Positions 1 through 4,087 of a DNA stretch of 4,087 nucleotides are shown here, one piece after another. The position numbers and the translations under genes were made by a program. The DNA is from a virus (lineage: Duplodnaviria; Heunggongvirae; Uroviricota; Caudoviricetes). The notes below the pieces were generated by a model. The model was not told the origin of the DNA. It saw nothing but the letters and a program-made list of their open reading frames with translations, and made no database searches. The stretch's first letter is position 1. Each line of letters begins with the position of its first letter. The stretch lies in the IMG/VR virus record IMGVR_UViG_2534681764_000006, positions 1 to 4,087 of that record; one strand, 5' to 3'.

Positions 1-162
1 GATAACATCCCACTTCGAACCATAACCGCGCTGATGACGGGATTGTCCTGGCTTGTATTGCTTCCAGCCTTCGCTTTTGTGGCTTTCGCAGTAGCCTGAC
101 GGGTCTGTCGTGGTATTACGGCAGCCGCGAACGCGGCAGGCTTTTGGAGTTCGAGGGGGCAT
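1..162 (-). CDS. HNH endonuclease, N-terminal 54 codons only; the gene continues beyond the left edge of the window
   Basis: Minus-strand ATG at 162..160 preceded by AGGA about 8 nt upstream; open to position 1. Translation MPPRTPKACRVRGCRNTTTDPSGYCESHKSEGWKQYKPGQSRHQRGYGSKWDVI shows the Cys-x2-Cys / GYC-x2-H / RGYG-x2-W pattern typical of phage HNH endonucleases found next to terminase genes. Not in the supplied ORF track because it is truncated by the window edge. Confidence 0.75.
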   Translation of the reverse strand, partial: MPPRTPKACRVRGCRNTTTDPSGYCESHKSEGWKQYKPGQSRHQRGYGSKWDVI

Positions 163-188
163 AAATATATTCCTGTTCTTTATCCGGA

Positions 189-461
189 CTATTTGACTGC
201 TGCCAGCAAAGCGTTACGGCGCATCTCGATACTTCGAATCCCCGCTTTGTCAATATTGCATTGTCCCAACGCCGAAAGCAGGCTCACATTCAGATCCAGA
301 CTGGCCCCATAGGTCAGCGGCTCGGGAATGACTGGCTGGGGAGTTTCAGTAGTCAGGCTTGCTGGCAACGGTACCGCCGGAATCGGTACGTAAACTGTTC
401 GCGTACTTCCGCAACCGGTCAGCAGCGGCAGCAGGCACATGACGTGAAGCACAATCATCAT
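189..461 (-). CDS. o-spanin (Rz1-like outer-membrane lipoprotein), starting inside the Rz gene in the +1 frame and extending past the Rz stop
   Basis: Within track ORF 189..713, Met85/Met86 (ATG at 461..459 and 458..456) begin MMIVLHVMCLLPLLTGC, a signal peptide with lipobox LTGC. The mature part is proline-rich (CGSTRTVYVPIPAVPLPASLTTETPQPVIPEPL...) and has a C-terminal Cys. The ORF part upstream of Met85 overlaps Rz out of frame and is probably not translated. The start codon is uncertain: the SD is weak, and in-frame CTG/TTG codons lie just upstream. Confidence 0.5.
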   Translation of the reverse strand: MMIVLHVMCLLPLLTGCGSTRTVYVPIPAVPLPASLTTETPQPVIPEPLTYGASLDLNVSLLSALGQCNIDKAGIRSIEMRRNALLAAVK

Positions 462-738
462 CCGCAACAGCCACTTTGATATCTTCCTGGGTTCTCTGTG
501 ACTCCAGTGCGATCTGCTGTTTTGCATGCTGGTTAGCCTCCAGAACTGTATTGACGATTTGCAGTGATTGCAGAACGTTACGGGTAATGGCAGTTGCTGA
601 TTCAGCATTTCGTACAGCCTCATCAGCACGCTCCTTTTCGTGCTGATATTTGCTGTAGTAATGCCCGGCAGACCAGATGAAGGAACCAATGACGGTAACA
701 ACGAAGGCAACAATAACCAGCTTATATCTCAGCTTCAT
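346..738 (-). CDS. i-spanin (Rz-like, N-terminal TMD plus coiled-coil periplasmic domain); not the lambda Rz sequence family
   Basis: ATG at 738..736 with GGTGGGG 7 nt upstream; the start overlaps the last 17 nt of the endolysin gene. N-terminus MKLRYKLVIVAFVVTVIGSFIW is a single TMD, followed by a charged Q/E/A-rich helical region and a C-terminal Cys. The position directly after the endolysin, with an embedded +1-frame lipoprotein ORF, fits a spanin. Confidence 0.7.
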   Translation of the reverse strand: MKLRYKLVIVAFVVTVIGSFIWSAGHYYSKYQHEKERADEAVRNAESATAITRNVLQSLQIVNTVLEANQHAKQQIALESQRTQEDIKVAVADDDCASRHVPAAAADRLRKYANSLRTDSGGTVASKPDY

Positions 739-1198
739 TTACTACCCCACCAGCTTTTTTAAATCGGGCAATCAGGTCACCGATTTTATGTTCATACTGA
801 CCGTAACCTGCACCAGGTAACGACGCCCAGATATTGCTGCAACGGTCGATTGCCTGACGAATACTGCCGCGGTCAATCATCGGTAAAGCACCACGCTCTT
901 TAATCTGCTGCAGAGCTACAGCGTCCTGGCTTTCTGGAGAAAAATCTTTCAGGCCAAGCTGTTTACGGTAAGCATCCCACCAGCGTGAAAGAAGCTGGTA
1001 ACGTCCGGCGGCTGTTGATTTGAGTTTGGGGTTTAGCGTGACAAGTTTGCGAGGGTGATCGGAGTAATCAGTGAACAGTTCGCCACCAACAATAACATCA
1101 TAACCGTGGTTTCTGGTTTTCTGCCGTCCGTTATCTGTTCCTTCTGACCATGCCACCATATCAAGGAAAGCTTTACGCTGGGAATTAAGTGTCTGCAT
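722..1198 (-). CDS. R: Endolysin, lambda R-type lytic transglycosylase
   Basis: 158-aa translation MQTLNSQRKAFLDMVAWSEGTDNGRQKTRNHGYDVIVGGELFTDYSDHPRKLVTLNPKLKSTAAGRYQLL... is nearly colinear with phage lambda R as I recall it, including the AWSEGTD segment that holds the catalytic Glu. ATG at 1198..1196 with AAGGAG about 6 nt upstream, embedded in the last holin codons. Identity was not checked by search. Confidence 0.93.
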   Translation of the reverse strand: MQTLNSQRKAFLDMVAWSEGTDNGRQKTRNHGYDVIVGGELFTDYSDHPRKLVTLNPKLKSTAAGRYQLLSRWWDAYRKQLGLKDFSPESQDAVALQQIKERGALPMIDRGSIRQAIDRCSNIWASLPGAGYGQYEHKIGDLIARFKKAGGVVNEAEI

Positions 1199-1201
1199 TA
1201 A

Positions 1202-1561
1202 TTACTCCTTATGGGCACCGAACTTGTTACCGATTACTCGCATTGCCGCCCCACGAATAGCATCAACACCAATCAGCCCCACCCCACCACCAATGGCAAC
1301 AGAAAGCGATTTAGGCCATCCGACATACTCAAGAGCGGATGCAAAGGTCAGCGTCAGAGCGCCACATAGCAAAATCTCGAGCGTTTTTCGCTTCCAGCCA
1401 CCACCACCGCCAAAATAGGCGATGCGCAAACCAGCCATAACGATCGACATAATCACTGCACCCAGCGGAGTGTCTCCACGCCACCAGCTCTGAAACAACT
1501 CCAGCCAGTCCGGCCAAGTATTTGGGTTATGAGGCATTTCATCATCTCTCACCTCGCACAT
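1202..1561 (-). CDS. Holin, three predicted TMDs (class I, lambda S-like topology); possible dual start at Met1 (1561) and Met9 (1537)
   Basis: Three hydrophobic segments (LGAVIMSIVMAGLRIAYF, LEILLCGALTLTFASALEYVGW, LSVAIGGGVGLIGVDAI) and a charged C-terminal tail (RGAAMRVIGNKFGAHKE). Sits immediately upstream of the endolysin with a 3-nt gap (stop TAA at 1204..1202). Two in-frame ATGs lie 8 codons apart; GAGGTGA lies between them, 13 nt upstream of the second. Confidence 0.85.
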   Translation of the reverse strand: MCEVRDDEMPHNPNTWPDWLELFQSWWRGDTPLGAVIMSIVMAGLRIAYFGGGGGWKRKTLEILLCGALTLTFASALEYVGWPKSLSVAIGGGVGLIGVDAIRGAAMRVIGNKFGAHKE

Positions 1562-1582
1562 ATCGCGGGTGCAAATTGAGGG

Positions 1583-1621
1583 AATAAAAAATCCCCGAAT
1601 ATTCCAGGAGCGGAAACGGGG
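1583..1621 (-). terminator. Terminator-like or leader structure about 20 nt upstream of the holin start (two-tier hairpin plus U-tract)
   Basis: Minus-strand RNA CCCCG-U-UUCC-GCUCCU-GGAA-UAUU-CGGGG followed by AUUUUUUAUU. The outer 5-bp GC stem encloses an inner 4-bp stem; the loop is large, so terminator efficiency is uncertain. It could instead be a structure controlling holin translation. Confidence 0.3.
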
Positions 1622-1657
1622 AAAGGCGTTGCACTAATTGGGCCTGTCTGCGGCCTT

Positions 1658-1685
1658 AAATAAAAAACCCCGGCAAATGCCGAGG
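1658..1685 (-). terminator. Rho-independent terminator in the late leader (candidate tR')
   Basis: Minus-strand RNA CCUCGGC-AUUU-GCCGGGG followed by UUUUUUAUUU: a 7-bp stem with one G.U pair, a 4-nt loop and a U6 tract. The G.U pair would be a C/A mismatch on the plus strand, so the structure is specific to the minus strand. Confidence 0.65.
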
Positions 1686-1905
1686 TCAGTTAATCGTTGC
1701 CGCTGTGAGTGCCGCGGCGCACTATCTCTTTATCAGGCCACTTACGCGTTAAACCGGGTGCTAACCGTAACTCAGTGATGCTTTACGCTTCCTCTCCCTC
1801 ACTACGTCGCAATTGGAGCCCGGCCAGATTAACGCTGTCGTCACGTTGCCAATATATGGCATCCAATGCATTCTTTTTATTTAGCTATTTCATTTTTCTA
1901 TCCGT

Positions 1906-1937
1906 CAGAAACAACAAAACCCGCTCAATGGCGGGTT
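1906..1937 (-). terminator. Rho-independent terminator about 85 nt downstream of the Q-like gene stop (candidate tR' or early-transcript terminator)
   Basis: Minus-strand RNA AACCCGC-CAUUGA-GCGGGUU followed by UUGUUGUUUCUG: a 7-bp stem, a 6-nt loop and a U-rich tail. Confidence 0.6.
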
Positions 1938-1939
1938 CT

Positions 1940-2024
1940 GGTAAAGTTCATGCGCTTGATTCGCCTCGCGATACAGCTTTGCGAAGCGTACCGGAATTGA
2001 AGCAGTTTATGCGTAAAAAATCAA
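1940..2024 (-). promoter_or_regulatory. Candidate late promoter (pR'-like) and Q-engagement region immediately downstream of the Q-like gene
   Basis: On the minus strand, TTGATT (2024..2019, overlapping the TGA stop), a 17-nt spacer, then TTCAAT (2001..1996). The -10 hexamer is weak, so this is positional inference from lambdoid architecture (Q, then pR'/qut, then tR', then the lysis genes). Confidence 0.25.
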
Positions 2025-2563
2025 GATATTTTTTGAGCAAATGATTCTCGCATGGGAATATATAGGACATACTCAGCAACAGCCAACCAATTAGCAATTC
2101 GCTTTTCGCATGTGCTAAAACACCACTCAGGATGTGCATCATTTAGCAATTCAGCCATTTTGCGCTTAGTCATCCCCCGCCCCTCATACCGTTGCCGAAG
2201 GATGCTAATCAATCCAGGATGCTCTGCCAACACCTCACTTATGACCCGATCAATACATAACGCCTCTGCATCAGTACAATGCGCCAGCCAGCTCTTTTGC
2301 TTACCGTTAATCATATCCCGCAAAAAAGCCTCAAGTTCAGACTTGTTCAGACCTGCTTTTTTCATCCTCCGGAGCGCCTCGTTAATTGCCGTTTTTGTCA
2401 GCTTTTTAGAGGTCAACATCAGGTTAAACATATTCCCCGTCTTACCGCCACCAATATACGACCAGCGCCCCCACATGCGCAGTTTTCCCTGAATCCAGAC
2501 ACTTTCCAGCGTGGTGAGACTAAGGTGTTCCCCGCTTTTGCCTGTATTTGTTGGGTAAATCAT
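2021..2563 (-). CDS. Putative late-gene antiterminator (Q-family-like), 180 aa; family assignment tentative
   Basis: ATG at 2563..2561 with AGGAAGG about 7 nt upstream, overlapping the upstream stop as ATGA. The track ORF 2021..2683 has a spurious N-terminal extension into the upstream gene. The N-terminal segment LESVWIQGKLRMWGRWS resembles the LERWGAW motif I recall in Q21-type antiterminators. The C-terminal ISILRQRYEGRGMTKRKMAELL looks like a helix-turn-helix. Position between the nin-type genes and a terminator-laden leader before the holin fits Q. Confidence 0.6.
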   Translation of the reverse strand: MIYPTNTGKSGEHLSLTTLESVWIQGKLRMWGRWSYIGGGKTGNMFNLMLTSKKLTKTAINEALRRMKKAGLNKSELEAFLRDMINGKQKSWLAHCTDAEALCIDRVISEVLAEHPGLISILRQRYEGRGMTKRKMAELLNDAHPEWCFSTCEKRIANWLAVAEYVLYIPMRESFAQKIS

Positions 2564-2850
2564 AAATAACCTTCCTTTCTCCAGATTTCTTGTGTGCGAA
2601 AAACACCTTCTGCATGCATCAGGCGTAATTCTTCTTTGGTGTAATCGCTGGTTTTTACCCGCCCGTCGATTAAATCGTGGCATGAGCTACAGGCAATCGC
2701 TGCCTGCATATCGTGTGGTTTTGTCGCTGTTCCGCACGTCCCCGCCAGCCTGTAATGCGCCAGCACAGAAGTTTCGGGATTGTGATTGCAGTAGCCAGGA
2801 ATTCTGACGGTGCACATCTGCCCCCGCGCCGCTTTACGTAAATCCACCAT
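2560..2850 (-). CDS. YbcO-like / DUF1364 Cys-rich putative zinc-binding nuclease (nin-region protein)
   Basis: 96-aa translation MVDLRKAARGQMCTVRIPGYCNHNPETSVLAHYRLAGTCGTATKPHDMQAAIACSSCHDLIDG... matches, in length and in the DLRKAARG / VRIPG.CN.NPETSVLAH / CGT.TKP / IACS.CHD blocks, my recollection of E. coli DLP12 YbcO. ATG at 2850..2848 overlaps the upstream stop as TAATG. Confidence 0.85.
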   Translation of the reverse strand: MVDLRKAARGQMCTVRIPGYCNHNPETSVLAHYRLAGTCGTATKPHDMQAAIACSSCHDLIDGRVKTSDYTKEELRLMHAEGVFRTQEIWRKEGYL

Positions 2851-3449
2851 TACGCAAACTCCAGTAACTGCGCGGCCACATTTTCGACTTCCTCCGGAGA
2901 GGAAAATTTACGGAACAGGATCCAGTTCCACAACACATTCAGTACAGATTTATAAACCTGCTGAAACACGGTTTCGTCCATGTTCGCAAATGCGATAGAT
3001 TTTGCCCTGCGCCCACGACTACCATCAGGATAAATATGCTCGGTGTAAAATCCGGCCTGAATGGTTACCCACTCGCGGAAAGCGTCAAACGACTTTAGCA
3101 ATGCCGTATCCCGGGTTCTGCATGTCGCAACGGTATTAAGGTATTGCTCTGCGGCATCACTCAGGGCTGGAGTGTGTTCCCGACCTACTGATTCGCACAG
3201 GTAATCAACGAAGCCCGATACCAGTTTTCGTTCGCGAGGCGTGATCGCCCCACCGACCGGAGTCCAGTAATCGAATCCCAGTTGCAGGAGTTTGAAAAAA
3301 CGCTTGTGGAATGCGTAGTTACGCACACGCTTAAAGTCTGCGTGTATCCACTCACCTATTTTGATTTGATGCAAAAAATCGCAACTCTCCGGCGTCGCCG
3401 GGAGAAGTAATCCGGAAGAGGTTTGTTTGACCAGTTGTATATGCGCCAT
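2850..3449 (-). CDS. Conserved prophage protein, DUF1367-like, 199 aa, function unknown
   Basis: ATG at 3449..3447 with GGAG 7 nt upstream; uninterrupted 199-codon frame whose stop is coupled to the next gene. The size and position just upstream of a DUF1364 gene match the DUF1367 family as I recall it; this is not verified. Confidence 0.8.
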   Translation of the reverse strand: MAHIQLVKQTSSGLLLPATPESCDFLHQIKIGEWIHADFKRVRNYAFHKRFFKLLQLGFDYWTPVGGAITPRERKLVSGFVDYLCESVGREHTPALSDAAEQYLNTVATCRTRDTALLKSFDAFREWVTIQAGFYTEHIYPDGSRGRRAKSIAFANMDETVFQQVYKSVLNVLWNWILFRKFSSPEEVENVAAQLLEFA

Positions 3450-3496
3450 CGTAGTTCTCCGCTGGCGCAGTAGAATGGGTGTTCAGCCCGTTATGT

Positions 3497-3505
3497 AGTA
3501 TACCA
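3497..3505 (-). promoter_or_regulatory. Candidate extended -10 element (TGgTATACT) about 45 nt upstream of the DUF1367-like start
   Basis: Minus-strand sequence TGGTATACT fits the TGnTATAAT extended -10 pattern. There is no well-spaced -35. Sequence motif only. Confidence 0.2.
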
Positions 3506-3520
3506 GAATTAATGCCAATA

Positions 3521-3733
3521 CTAACAGGATGCTCTGACTCGCAATTCATCCAGCAGTTTATCATTTCCCATAATGTCACTTACCCTCATCGGTAAAAAAA
3601 TTGCCTTTCGACCATTACGATACATCATTGATTTTGGGATTTCAGGGAAGTAATCCATTTCGACTATAACTGACAGGTCATCACGACGTATGACTGCGTA
3701 TTTGCTACTAAATAGTTTCTTTATTTTTTCCAC
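3521..3733 (-). CDS. Small hypothetical protein (about 70 aa) in an AT-rich moron-like insert; probable GTG start
   Basis: The track ORF 3521..3772 begins at a GTG with no SD. An in-frame GTG at 3733..3731 is preceded by CCTGGAGG with a 4-nt spacer, giving (M)EKIKKLFSSKYAVIRRDDLSVIVEMDYFPEIPKSMMYRNGRKAIFLPMRVSDIMGNDKLLDELRVRASC. No TMD and no family that I recognise. The region is visibly more AT-rich than the flanking genes. Confidence 0.45.
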   Translation of the reverse strand: MEKIKKLFSSKYAVIRRDDLSVIVEMDYFPEIPKSMMYRNGRKAIFLPMRVSDIMGNDKLLDELRVRASC

Positions 3734-3813
3734 GATGCCTCCAGGTTTATAAGTACAAAAGGTTATATCCACATAGAGACAAAAATATTAATCTGAAAAA
3801 TATTTATTTCACG

Positions 3814-3886
3814 CCATATATTTGATTATTTAATGTGCAGGTACAATGACTTTTATTTTGTGTTGTGTATATAATCAAATATATGG
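3814..3886. repeat. Perfect 16-bp inverted repeat pair with a 41-bp AT-rich spacer, upstream of the small ORF
   Basis: Plus strand 3814..3829 CCATATATTTGATTAT and 3871..3886 ATAATCAAATATATGG are exact reverse complements. A consensus TATAAT at 3870..3875 on the plus strand lies inside the right arm. Confidence 0.9.
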
Positions 3887-3915
3887 TTATTTTTCACCCT
3901 GCGTATTCAGCGCGC

Positions 3916-3940
3916 AACAAAAAACCCGCCGAAACGGGTT
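3916..3940 (-). terminator. Rho-independent terminator after the upstream gene (nin-region tR-type terminator)
   Basis: Minus-strand RNA AACCCG-UUUCGG-CGGGUU followed by UUUUGUUG: a GC-rich stem with a U-tract, about 70 nt downstream of the stop codon at 4011..4009. Confidence 0.6.
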
Positions 3941-3979
3941 AAGCGCGGGTGCGTTGAGGATGCCTGACTCATCAGAGGT

Positions 3980-4001
3980 GGCGAGGGATTTCTCCCTCGC
4001 C
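3980..4001. other. Stable 9-bp stem-loop (GGCGAGGGA-loop-TCCCTCGCC) with no U-tract, 8 nt downstream of the upstream gene's stop
   Basis: Plus 3980..3988 GGCGAGGGA pairs perfectly with 3993..4001 TCCCTCGCC across a 4-nt loop. It lies in the 3' UTR of the minus-strand gene, upstream of the terminator. Confidence 0.5.
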
Positions 4002-4008
4002 TAGTCTC

Positions 4009-4087
4009 TTACTCCTCAGGTTCGTAAGCTGTGAAGACAGCGACCTCCGTCTGGCCGGTTCGGATTCGTACCTCGCAGAGGTCTTTC
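4009..4087 (-). CDS. 3' end of an upstream minus-strand gene (last 25 codons plus stop); identity unknown, possibly a nin-region gene
   Basis: The frame with codons starting at 4086 reads ...KDLCEVRIRTGQTEVAVFTAYEPEE then TAA at 4011..4009, using common codons. The other two minus frames are rich in rare AGG/AGA/CGA codons. The C-terminal pattern loosely resembles RusA-type resolvase C-termini, but 25 residues are too few to assign. Confidence 0.45.
   Translation of the reverse strand, partial: KDLCEVRIRTGQTEVAVFTAYEPEE

Follow-up and report, generated by a model that had tools for sequence, protein, structure and literature searches.

The DNA analysed here, which we call the window, is 4,087 nucleotides (nt) long (positions 1 to 4,087 of the Caudoviricetes record IMGVR_UViG_2534681764_000006). 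It is the right-hand portion of a lambda-like prophage, and every gene in it is on the minus strand. Two genes, one encoding a DUF1367 protein (also named IrsA) and the other YbcO/DUF1364, run directly into the gene for a Q-like late antiterminator. On balance, we think this pair is probably the DNA-recombination part of a nin-like delayed-early operon of the prophage, made up of a mediator resembling Orf and an exchangeable nuclease. The link of the pair to Q is most likely positional. Both families are very common, already have structure-based and database predictions, and fit the known kind "nin-region recombination module". We found no publication that spells out how DUF1367 pairs with interchangeable nucleases.

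The DUF1367 gene (2850..3449, minus strand) encodes 199 amino acids (aa), the YbcO gene (2560..2850, minus strand) 96 aa, and the Q-like gene (2021..2563, minus strand) 180 aa. The DUF1367 stop codon TAA (2852-2850) has one base in common with the YbcO ATG (2850-2848), so that the 1-nt overlap reads TAATG (2848..2852). The YbcO stop codon TGA (2562-2560) overlaps the ATG of the Q-like gene (2563-2561) by 4 nt, as ATGA (2560..2563). All three genes have a Shine-Dalgarno-like GGAG/AGGAAGG 6-9 nt 5' of the start, and those of YbcO and Q fall within the preceding gene. An alternative upstream ATG at 2683 would give a Q-like protein of 220 aa. We place the start at 2563 because position 1 of Pfam DUF1133 aligns with residue 1 of the 180-aa product; in the longer open reading frame (ORF) calls of relatives, the DUF1133 alignment begins at residue 41.

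The overlaps are conserved. Across different species, DUF1367 and YbcO overlap by -1 or -4 in 24 of 30 adjacent junctions, and YbcO and Q overlap by -4 or -1 in all 18 cross-species junctions, the latter pattern recurring in 71 viral loci. From its successive stop/start overlaps ending at Q, the window appears to carry a translationally chained nin operon of the lambda type. In lambda, the series ren/ninB to ninI/Q has 4-nt overlaps at six junctions, NinI/Q included, and Kroger and Hobom (1982) reportedly described ninR as a chain of interlinked genes. The overlap with Q arises because Q is the last gene of a tightly packed, translationally chained operon. Because the lambda nin genes are chained likewise, we regard the overlap as a property of the operon and not of DUF1367 or YbcO. 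Such coupling would ensure coordinated expression; it is no demonstration of fixed stoichiometry.

DUF1367 belongs to Pfam family PF07105 (E 4.8e-97, 323.9 bits against a cut-off of 25), with residues 1-198 aligned to positions 1-198 of the model. Among 1.84 billion representative proteins scanned, 1094 DUF1367 clusters at 50% identity were found with E <= 0.001. In a phage Rac record the gene goes by the name irsA. The same name is used in Salmonella Gifsy prophages, where a dinI-antirepressor-irsA operon has been described (PMC3121763). PHROGs places DUF1367 in phrog_319, labelled NinB/Orf recombination mediator, while lambda NinB itself is in phrog_72; deposited Vibrio phage genomes already use the NinB/Orf label for DUF1367. 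Apart from Lemire et al. 2011, our search of the irsA literature turned up no study of its function. Members of the family come in two forms, a long one of ~197-200 aa, to which the window copy belongs, and a short one of ~150-160 aa that lacks residues 66-116. Short-form homologues align only with residues 1-65 and 117-198. The codons of the insertion span 3102..3254 on the minus strand.

To place the fold, we used an AlphaFold2 model built from a 95-sequence alignment, which reached a predicted local distance difference test (pLDDT) score of 93.2. The model is confident because this diverse alignment replaced a shallow one; the first model, from 33 sequences of at least 61% identity, had a pLDDT of 64 and was discarded. 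In the retained model the insertion forms a two-helix hairpin (helices 71-88 and 90-113). Foldseek comparison of the predicted monomer with the PDB gave the highest listed template modelling (TM) scores to lambda NinB, 1pc6_A and 1pc6_B at 0.44 and 0.42, yet these are not significant. Against BFVD, three matches were named NinB, with E 0.04-0.1. A PDB profile search with DUF1367 did not recover 1PC6. When the hairpin columns were removed, the collinear hhalign match between DUF1367 and NinB grew from 25 to 81 columns, at a pairwise E of 0.028 and a probability of 1.7%. This alignment pairs DUF1367 R43, S151, M157 and F162, all among the most conserved residues of the family, with conserved NinB R41, S100, M104 and F109. 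Curtis et al. mutated NinB Q45, K48, W50, R103 and V106, which they described as channel-flanking, and several of these mutants no longer bound DNA (PMC4118853). The four NinB residues in our alignment lie in segments 41-50 and 100-109, which contain these mutated positions. We treat a relationship between DUF1367 and Orf/NinB at the level of the fold as probable, and the model suggests that DUF1367 is a very divergent relative of lambda Orf/NinB with an extra hairpin at 66-116. DUF1367 falls outside the Pfam NinB family, and homology is not established by sequence profiles. In a separate observation, PDB 2mqd_A, an uncharacterised 119-residue nuclear magnetic resonance structure, weakly matches the DUF1367 profile at residues 12-64 (E 0.035). 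The match spans a strand and an "RN..K" helix-start motif, and 2mqd_A may be another distant fold relative.

YbcO belongs to PF07102 (E 1.4e-45, 153.6 bits, cut-off 29.9) and matches phrog_131, "HNH endonuclease" (E 1.6e-42). Residues 1-95 match PDB 3G27_A (E 3.8e-32), the crystal structure of YbcO from phage 82/DLP12. The protein has five Cys (13, 21, 39, 54 and 57) and five His (23, 32, 46, 58 and 79). In an alignment of 15 diverse homologues, C13, C21, C54, C57, H32, H58, G40, K44, D47 and D62 are invariant and C39 is variable. Two classifications place DUF1364 among the His-Me (HNH) finger nucleases (PMC4999995, PMC5714182). Kaur and Subramanian related 3G27 to P1 Ref (3PLW) by FFAS, with the catalytic His on a beta-hairpin (PMC4999995). 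Jablonska et al. clustered DUF1364 with DUF968 in His-Me group 7, listed RusA, Q and antirepressor genes as its neighbours, and proposed that it acts in recombination, as NinG and Ref do (PMC5714182). Our assignment of the His-Me fold rests on the published superposition (PMC5714182, PMC4999995). The published picture fits the invariant residues, since the hairpin His, the helix His/Asp and the Cys quartet of a His-Me finger are all present as H32, as H58 and D62, and as C13, C21, C54 and C57. On this alignment the four Cys are predicted structural zinc ligands, H32 the predicted general base, and H58 and D62 would sit at the catalytic metal site. No similarity to NinG or YdfU was seen by BLASTP and no match to PF16786, and no NCBIfam model matches YbcO, DUF1367 or the Q-like protein.

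An initial annotation of the window, made from the sequence alone, had described the overlaps TAATG and ATGA, both of which are exact, five Cys and several His in YbcO, and membership of the two proteins in DUF1367 and YbcO/DUF1364, which the Pfam matches make unambiguous. It had also called the 199-aa protein one with no known function and the pair functionally undescribed. For direct experiments this holds for both proteins, and no report on YbcO biochemistry turned up in the literature. However, DUF1367 already had the irsA name and the PHROGs NinB/Orf label, and for YbcO there were already a solved structure and a published prediction that it is a His-Me nuclease with a role in recombination.

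We surveyed the gene neighbourhoods of DUF1367 in 80 viral contigs that are close relatives and in 80 species-level loci, with DUF1367 identity of 37-99%, and defined the nuclease slot as the first nuclease no more than 3 kb downstream of DUF1367. The order DUF1367, YbcO, Q is present in 79 of the 80 closely related viral loci. Of 5426 complete E. coli genomes, 1651 also carry a 1.75-kb core of these genes, whose annotation there goes no further than DUF1367, DUF1364 and DUF1133; the view that the block is conserved and not new sequence thus stands. An HNH-type nuclease follows DUF1367 in 76 of the 80 species-level loci (YbcO in 43, a Ref-like nuclease in 28 and NinG/Rap in 5). The other 4 have no nuclease within 3 kb, and at least 2 of them are at contig ends. 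The Ref-like nucleases are ~100 aa long (PF16786, RecA_dep_nuc/DUF968), and their profile matches P1 Ref 3PLW at E 0.005. Genes for Dam, a PAPS-reductase-like (NinC-like) protein, a cytosine methylase or a homing endonuclease are occasionally inserted between DUF1367 and the nuclease. Among 71 genes next after the nuclease, 57 match a Q family, and these fall to PF06530/DUF1133 (43), PF06323 (8) and PF03589 (6). NinB is absent from all 160 DUF1367 loci (80 viral and 80 species-level), and RusA is present in only 2 of them. DUF1367 thus lies in the nin-type position between the replication genes and Q as the sole Orf-type gene.

DUF1367 has recombination neighbours in other phages too. Outside Enterobacterales, one locus has ERF, YqaJ, a Ref-like nuclease and short-form DUF1367 in this order, with 4-nt overlaps and without Q, and in another a short-form DUF1367 is followed directly by YbcO. 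A Polaribacter phage carries RecT, a metallo-beta-lactamase (MBL)-fold protein and DUF1367, again without Q. In Vibrio phage D155, DUF1367 lies between two HNH genes, and Pseudomonas phage PMG1 has the order O, DnaB, ..., DUF1367, ..., NinG. A survey of neighbourhoods against Q types had been proposed with the initial annotation. The linkage of DUF1367, nuclease and Q that it would look for is present, but both the Q type and the nuclease vary. The two genes are not the fixed unit they had been taken for, as Ref-like or NinG nucleases replace YbcO in 33 of 80 loci and YbcO of DLP12 sits with YbcN.

Two candidate fusions (P0029 and P0003), the only ones in the databases, were rejected. One protein joins DUF1367 1-169 to YbcO from C54 onward, and another joins DUF1367 to a portal-like fragment. 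Both are in-frame deletion products of decaying prophages, and neither is a true fusion. Two further proteins were seen beside DUF1367. A Cys-rich protein of ~130 aa (MKK..C.FCG.P.TLLCDG...), with no Pfam match, lies between DUF1367 (or Dam) and YbcO or NinG at loci from Pantoea, Erwinia and Serratia (L088:5247-5639, L101:1067-1537 and L124:5145-5543, plus strand). On a metagenomic contig, short-form DUF1367 is followed by a 99-aa protein (L175:1058-1357, plus strand) ending in ...FNDDVPF, which resembles the acidic tail DDDIPF of single-stranded DNA-binding protein (SSB). Since SSB is a ligand of Orf-family proteins, this protein is a candidate small partner, either SSB-like or a mimic of the tail.

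Orf/NinB, a small dimeric protein, binds single-stranded DNA (ssDNA) and SSB and helps to load RecA or the phage single-strand annealing protein. In the lambda ninR region, Orf/NinB and the nuclease Rap/NinG occupy the slot between the replication or cargo genes and Q, which is where the DUF1367-YbcO pair is found. Both regions have a small protein of the Orf fold (predicted in the window) followed by an HNH-type structure-specific nuclease, and in both the stop/start overlaps run into Q. NinG itself takes the place of YbcO behind DUF1367 in 5 of 80 loci. However, DUF1367 has no Pfam NinB match and carries a 50-residue helical hairpin. Lambda Rap, at 204 aa, is about twice the length of the 96-aa YbcO and shares no sequence similarity with it, and only two genes precede Q in the window block against about nine in lambda.

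The nin region of DLP12/phage 82 is also comparable. Its order is ybcN (Orf family), ninE, ybcO, rusA, ylcG, quuD, so that a true YbcO (PF07102), 61% identical to that of the window, comes after an Orf-family gene and before Q. It differs from the window in that the mediator is YbcN, with a weak NinB match, and not DUF1367, that the RusA resolvase is present (as in only 2 of the 160 DUF1367 loci), and that its Q is another family member. A further parallel comes from DUF968 proteins such as Qin YdfU and phiETA Orf20, in which an Orf-like DNA-binding domain is fused to an HNH (His-Me nuclease) domain (PMC4118853). YdfU lies just before Q in Qin. By analogy, the DUF1367-YbcO pair looks like a two-gene version of this fusion, though the sequence link is not confirmed. 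The window has two separate polypeptides, neither of which matches PF06147, and comparison with YdfU gave no significant similarity for DUF1367 (hhalign) or for YbcO (BLASTP). P1 Ref (3PLW) is likewise a His-Me finger with a Cys-rich zinc site, and in 28 of 80 loci the slot behind DUF1367 is filled by a Ref-like gene. The functions of Orf/RecFOR, Rap and Ref are established and have been reviewed (PMC4118853, PMC5714182).

From these parallels, DUF1367 would bind ssDNA and SSB as Orf does and aid the loading of RecA or a phage annealing protein. YbcO would act as a minimal His-Me/HNH nuclease that nicks or cuts branched or RecA-bound recombination or replication intermediates, like Rap/NinG or Ref, and the two proteins may interact physically. 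Jointly, they would favour recombination-dependent replication and repair of the phage DNA ahead of its packaging, with a modular nuclease slot that may hold YbcO, a Ref-like nuclease or NinG. Several results weigh against this account. DUF1367 has no match to Pfam NinB PF05772, and hhalign comparisons with the single lambda NinB and with the NinB family alignment were not significant (probability 0.2-1.7%, pairwise E 0.03-0.4). The evidence for the fold is one predicted monomer. Alignment of YbcO with the Ref-like profile by hhalign is in register but not significant, so that its relation to Ref depends on the published FFAS and structure comparisons. The experimental record on irsA does not point to recombination: a non-polar deletion left the induction of Gifsy reporter fusions unchanged, and the name comes from unpublished Tn10 insertions that impair Salmonella growth in host cells (PMC3121763). 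Synteny is linkage and not mechanism, and several distant DUF1367 members are on short contigs with unannotated neighbours.

We considered three rival explanations and, besides them, a more novel reading. The latter joins the two proteins more closely and is rather unlikely: DUF1367 and the neighbouring His-Me nuclease would be the two components of a nuclease targeted to its substrate, like an Orf-HNH fusion split in two. Here a ring of the Orf type would be loaded at D-loops or at ssDNA gaps coated with SSB and recruit or activate a weak mini-nuclease to make recombinogenic cuts, and the two proteins would dock through the family-specific hairpin at 66-116. P1 Ref is activated by RecA filaments in a comparable manner. 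In the first rival, DUF1367 has only a generic small alpha/beta fold and another role on DNA, for example in recognising damage or mismatches or in restarting replication, with YbcO a chance neighbour and no partner. The non-significant DUF1367-NinB comparison would agree with this, as would the swappable nuclease, the Dam, PAPS-reductase-like or methylase genes sometimes found between the two, and the report, discussed in PMC4118853, of NinB-like YbcN as a base-flipping protein. However, NinB (1pc6) gives the best TM-scores among the PDB matches listed, DUF1367 and NinB use the same slot and are mutually exclusive, and a nuclease is nearby in 76 of 80 loci, while both gene orders are known. 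We consider this explanation doubtful.

The second rival is a conflict module, in which YbcO is an offensive or defensive nuclease against host or competing phage DNA, acting like RecA-dependent Ref or HNH effectors, and DUF1367 its targeting, inhibitor or immunity partner. Just upstream lies a hotspot of defence-like cargo (PIN_8, AbiTii, toxins and methylases), RecA-dependent Ref-like nucleases are among the partner families, and YbcO weakly matches PADLOC HNH effector models (E 0.0015-0.005). These matches cover only ~30 residues of generic HNH core, however, and DUF1367 has no match in PADLOC. The block is conserved while the adjoining cargo varies, and its neighbours elsewhere are ERF/YqaJ and RecT. 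The pairing of DUF1367 with three nuclease families also counts against an immunity role, since an immunity protein is expected to co-vary with one. We regard a conflict function as improbable. The initial annotation had taken the overlaps to imply stoichiometric co-expression with the Q-like protein and had asked what the pair does at the early-to-late transition. DUF1367 and YbcO would then be Q accessories, made in fixed ratio with Q and aiding or timing the switch, for example on DNA or on RNA polymerase at the late promoter. The YbcO-Q overlap kept in 18 of 18 junctions would suit this, as would the conservation of DUF1367, nuclease and Q as a block downstream of variable cargo and, by likeness to a published operon report, the four-gene "antQ operon" of Gifsy-1 (PMC4825925). 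Nevertheless, the Q genes behind the module belong to at least three unrelated families, and DUF1367 is in 212 phage records against only 32 for DUF1133-type Q. In other phages DUF1367 accompanies recombination genes without Q, lambda has unrelated nin genes in a chain with Q, and the irsA deletion left Gifsy reporter induction unchanged (PMC3121763). A role as Q accessory is very improbable on these grounds, and neither such a role nor fixed stoichiometry follows from the overlaps. A positional link between the recombination pair and Q agrees with the varied Q families, the narrower spread of this Q type and the Q-less contexts.

The Gifsy prophages offer a further comparison. In Gifsy-1, SL2582, SL2581, SL2580 and antQ (SL2579) are reported to form one operon (PMC4825925). 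The likeness to the window, drawn by gene name, consists of irsA and of genes upstream of antQ that are co-transcribed with it (PMC3121763, PMC4825925). The window differs in having no dinI, antirepressor or LexA box; no LexA box was found in it with one mismatch allowed.

The Q-like protein matches PF06576 DUF1133 (E 1.5e-105), phrog_753 "anti-termination protein Q-like" (E 4e-77) and, just above the cut-off of 26, PF06530 Phage_antitermQ (27.9 bits). Family matches, downstream terminator-like hairpins and a holin gene place it among the Q antiterminators, and antitermination is its predicted activity. A terminator scan found the hairpins at 1940-1915 and 1687-1666 in the ~460-nt gap between Q and the holin gene. 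Downstream of Q, on the minus strand, a lambda-type holin gene (1202-1561) comes first, then an ORF of 158 aa at the place of the endolysin gene (722-1198), and then an Rz-like gene (346-738). The lysis cassette (window 1-1572) is 97.5% identical to Shigella phage SfV, and the Q-YbcO-DUF1367 side (window 1906-4087) is 84-97% identical to Rac-like and other E. coli prophages. Because the two ends match different phages, the window is a mosaic, with its breakpoint within the Q-to-holin intergenic region. A record labelled "Actinobacillus phage vB_Apl-pPE4" (PP818812.1) has 96.6% DNA identity to window 1906-4087, a prophage region of the E. coli/Shigella type, and a DUF1367 protein 99.5% identical. 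Its host assignment looks doubtful, or else this looks like a recent transfer or contamination.

Upstream of DUF1367, ~2.5 kb of sequence is a species-variable cargo hotspot (loci L083-L162, ~1400-4000). It holds genes for PIN_8, AbiTii, Hok/Gef, HigB-like and YdaT toxins, C5 DNA methylases, a DNA Pol III theta homologue and DinI, and in one locus a heat-stable enterotoxin B (STb) gene. Because these neighbours differ widely between loci, the conserved block starts at DUF1367. The variable slot of the window, outside the block, is occupied by an ORF of 83 aa with a GTG start (3521..3772, minus strand), which matches phrog_1813 of unknown function (E 2.3e-34) and gave no match in Pfam, NCBIfam or PADLOC. 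It occupies the position of rem in phage Rac, but identification as Rem was rejected because it has no similarity and belongs to a different PHROG. Upstream of this ORF and of DUF1367-YbcO-Q, positions 3919..4000 on the minus strand form a hairpin and terminator-like element (terminator stem 3940-3923). It matches Rfam isrK over the full model length, weakly and below threshold (26.9 bits against a gathering score of 50). In Gifsy-1, the small RNA IsrK controls an antirepressor that turns on antQ.

Taken together, the DUF1367-YbcO module is very common, yet it still carries only "DUF" names in RefSeq. An Orf-like mediator with a swappable His-Me nuclease would give IrsA/DUF1367 and YbcO a concrete, testable function. 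This placement would explain why the block goes along with Q yet is not bound to any one type of Q. It would also extend the Orf family and the recurring pairing of Orf-type proteins with HNH nucleases, and it leaves the understanding of lambdoid late regulation unchanged.

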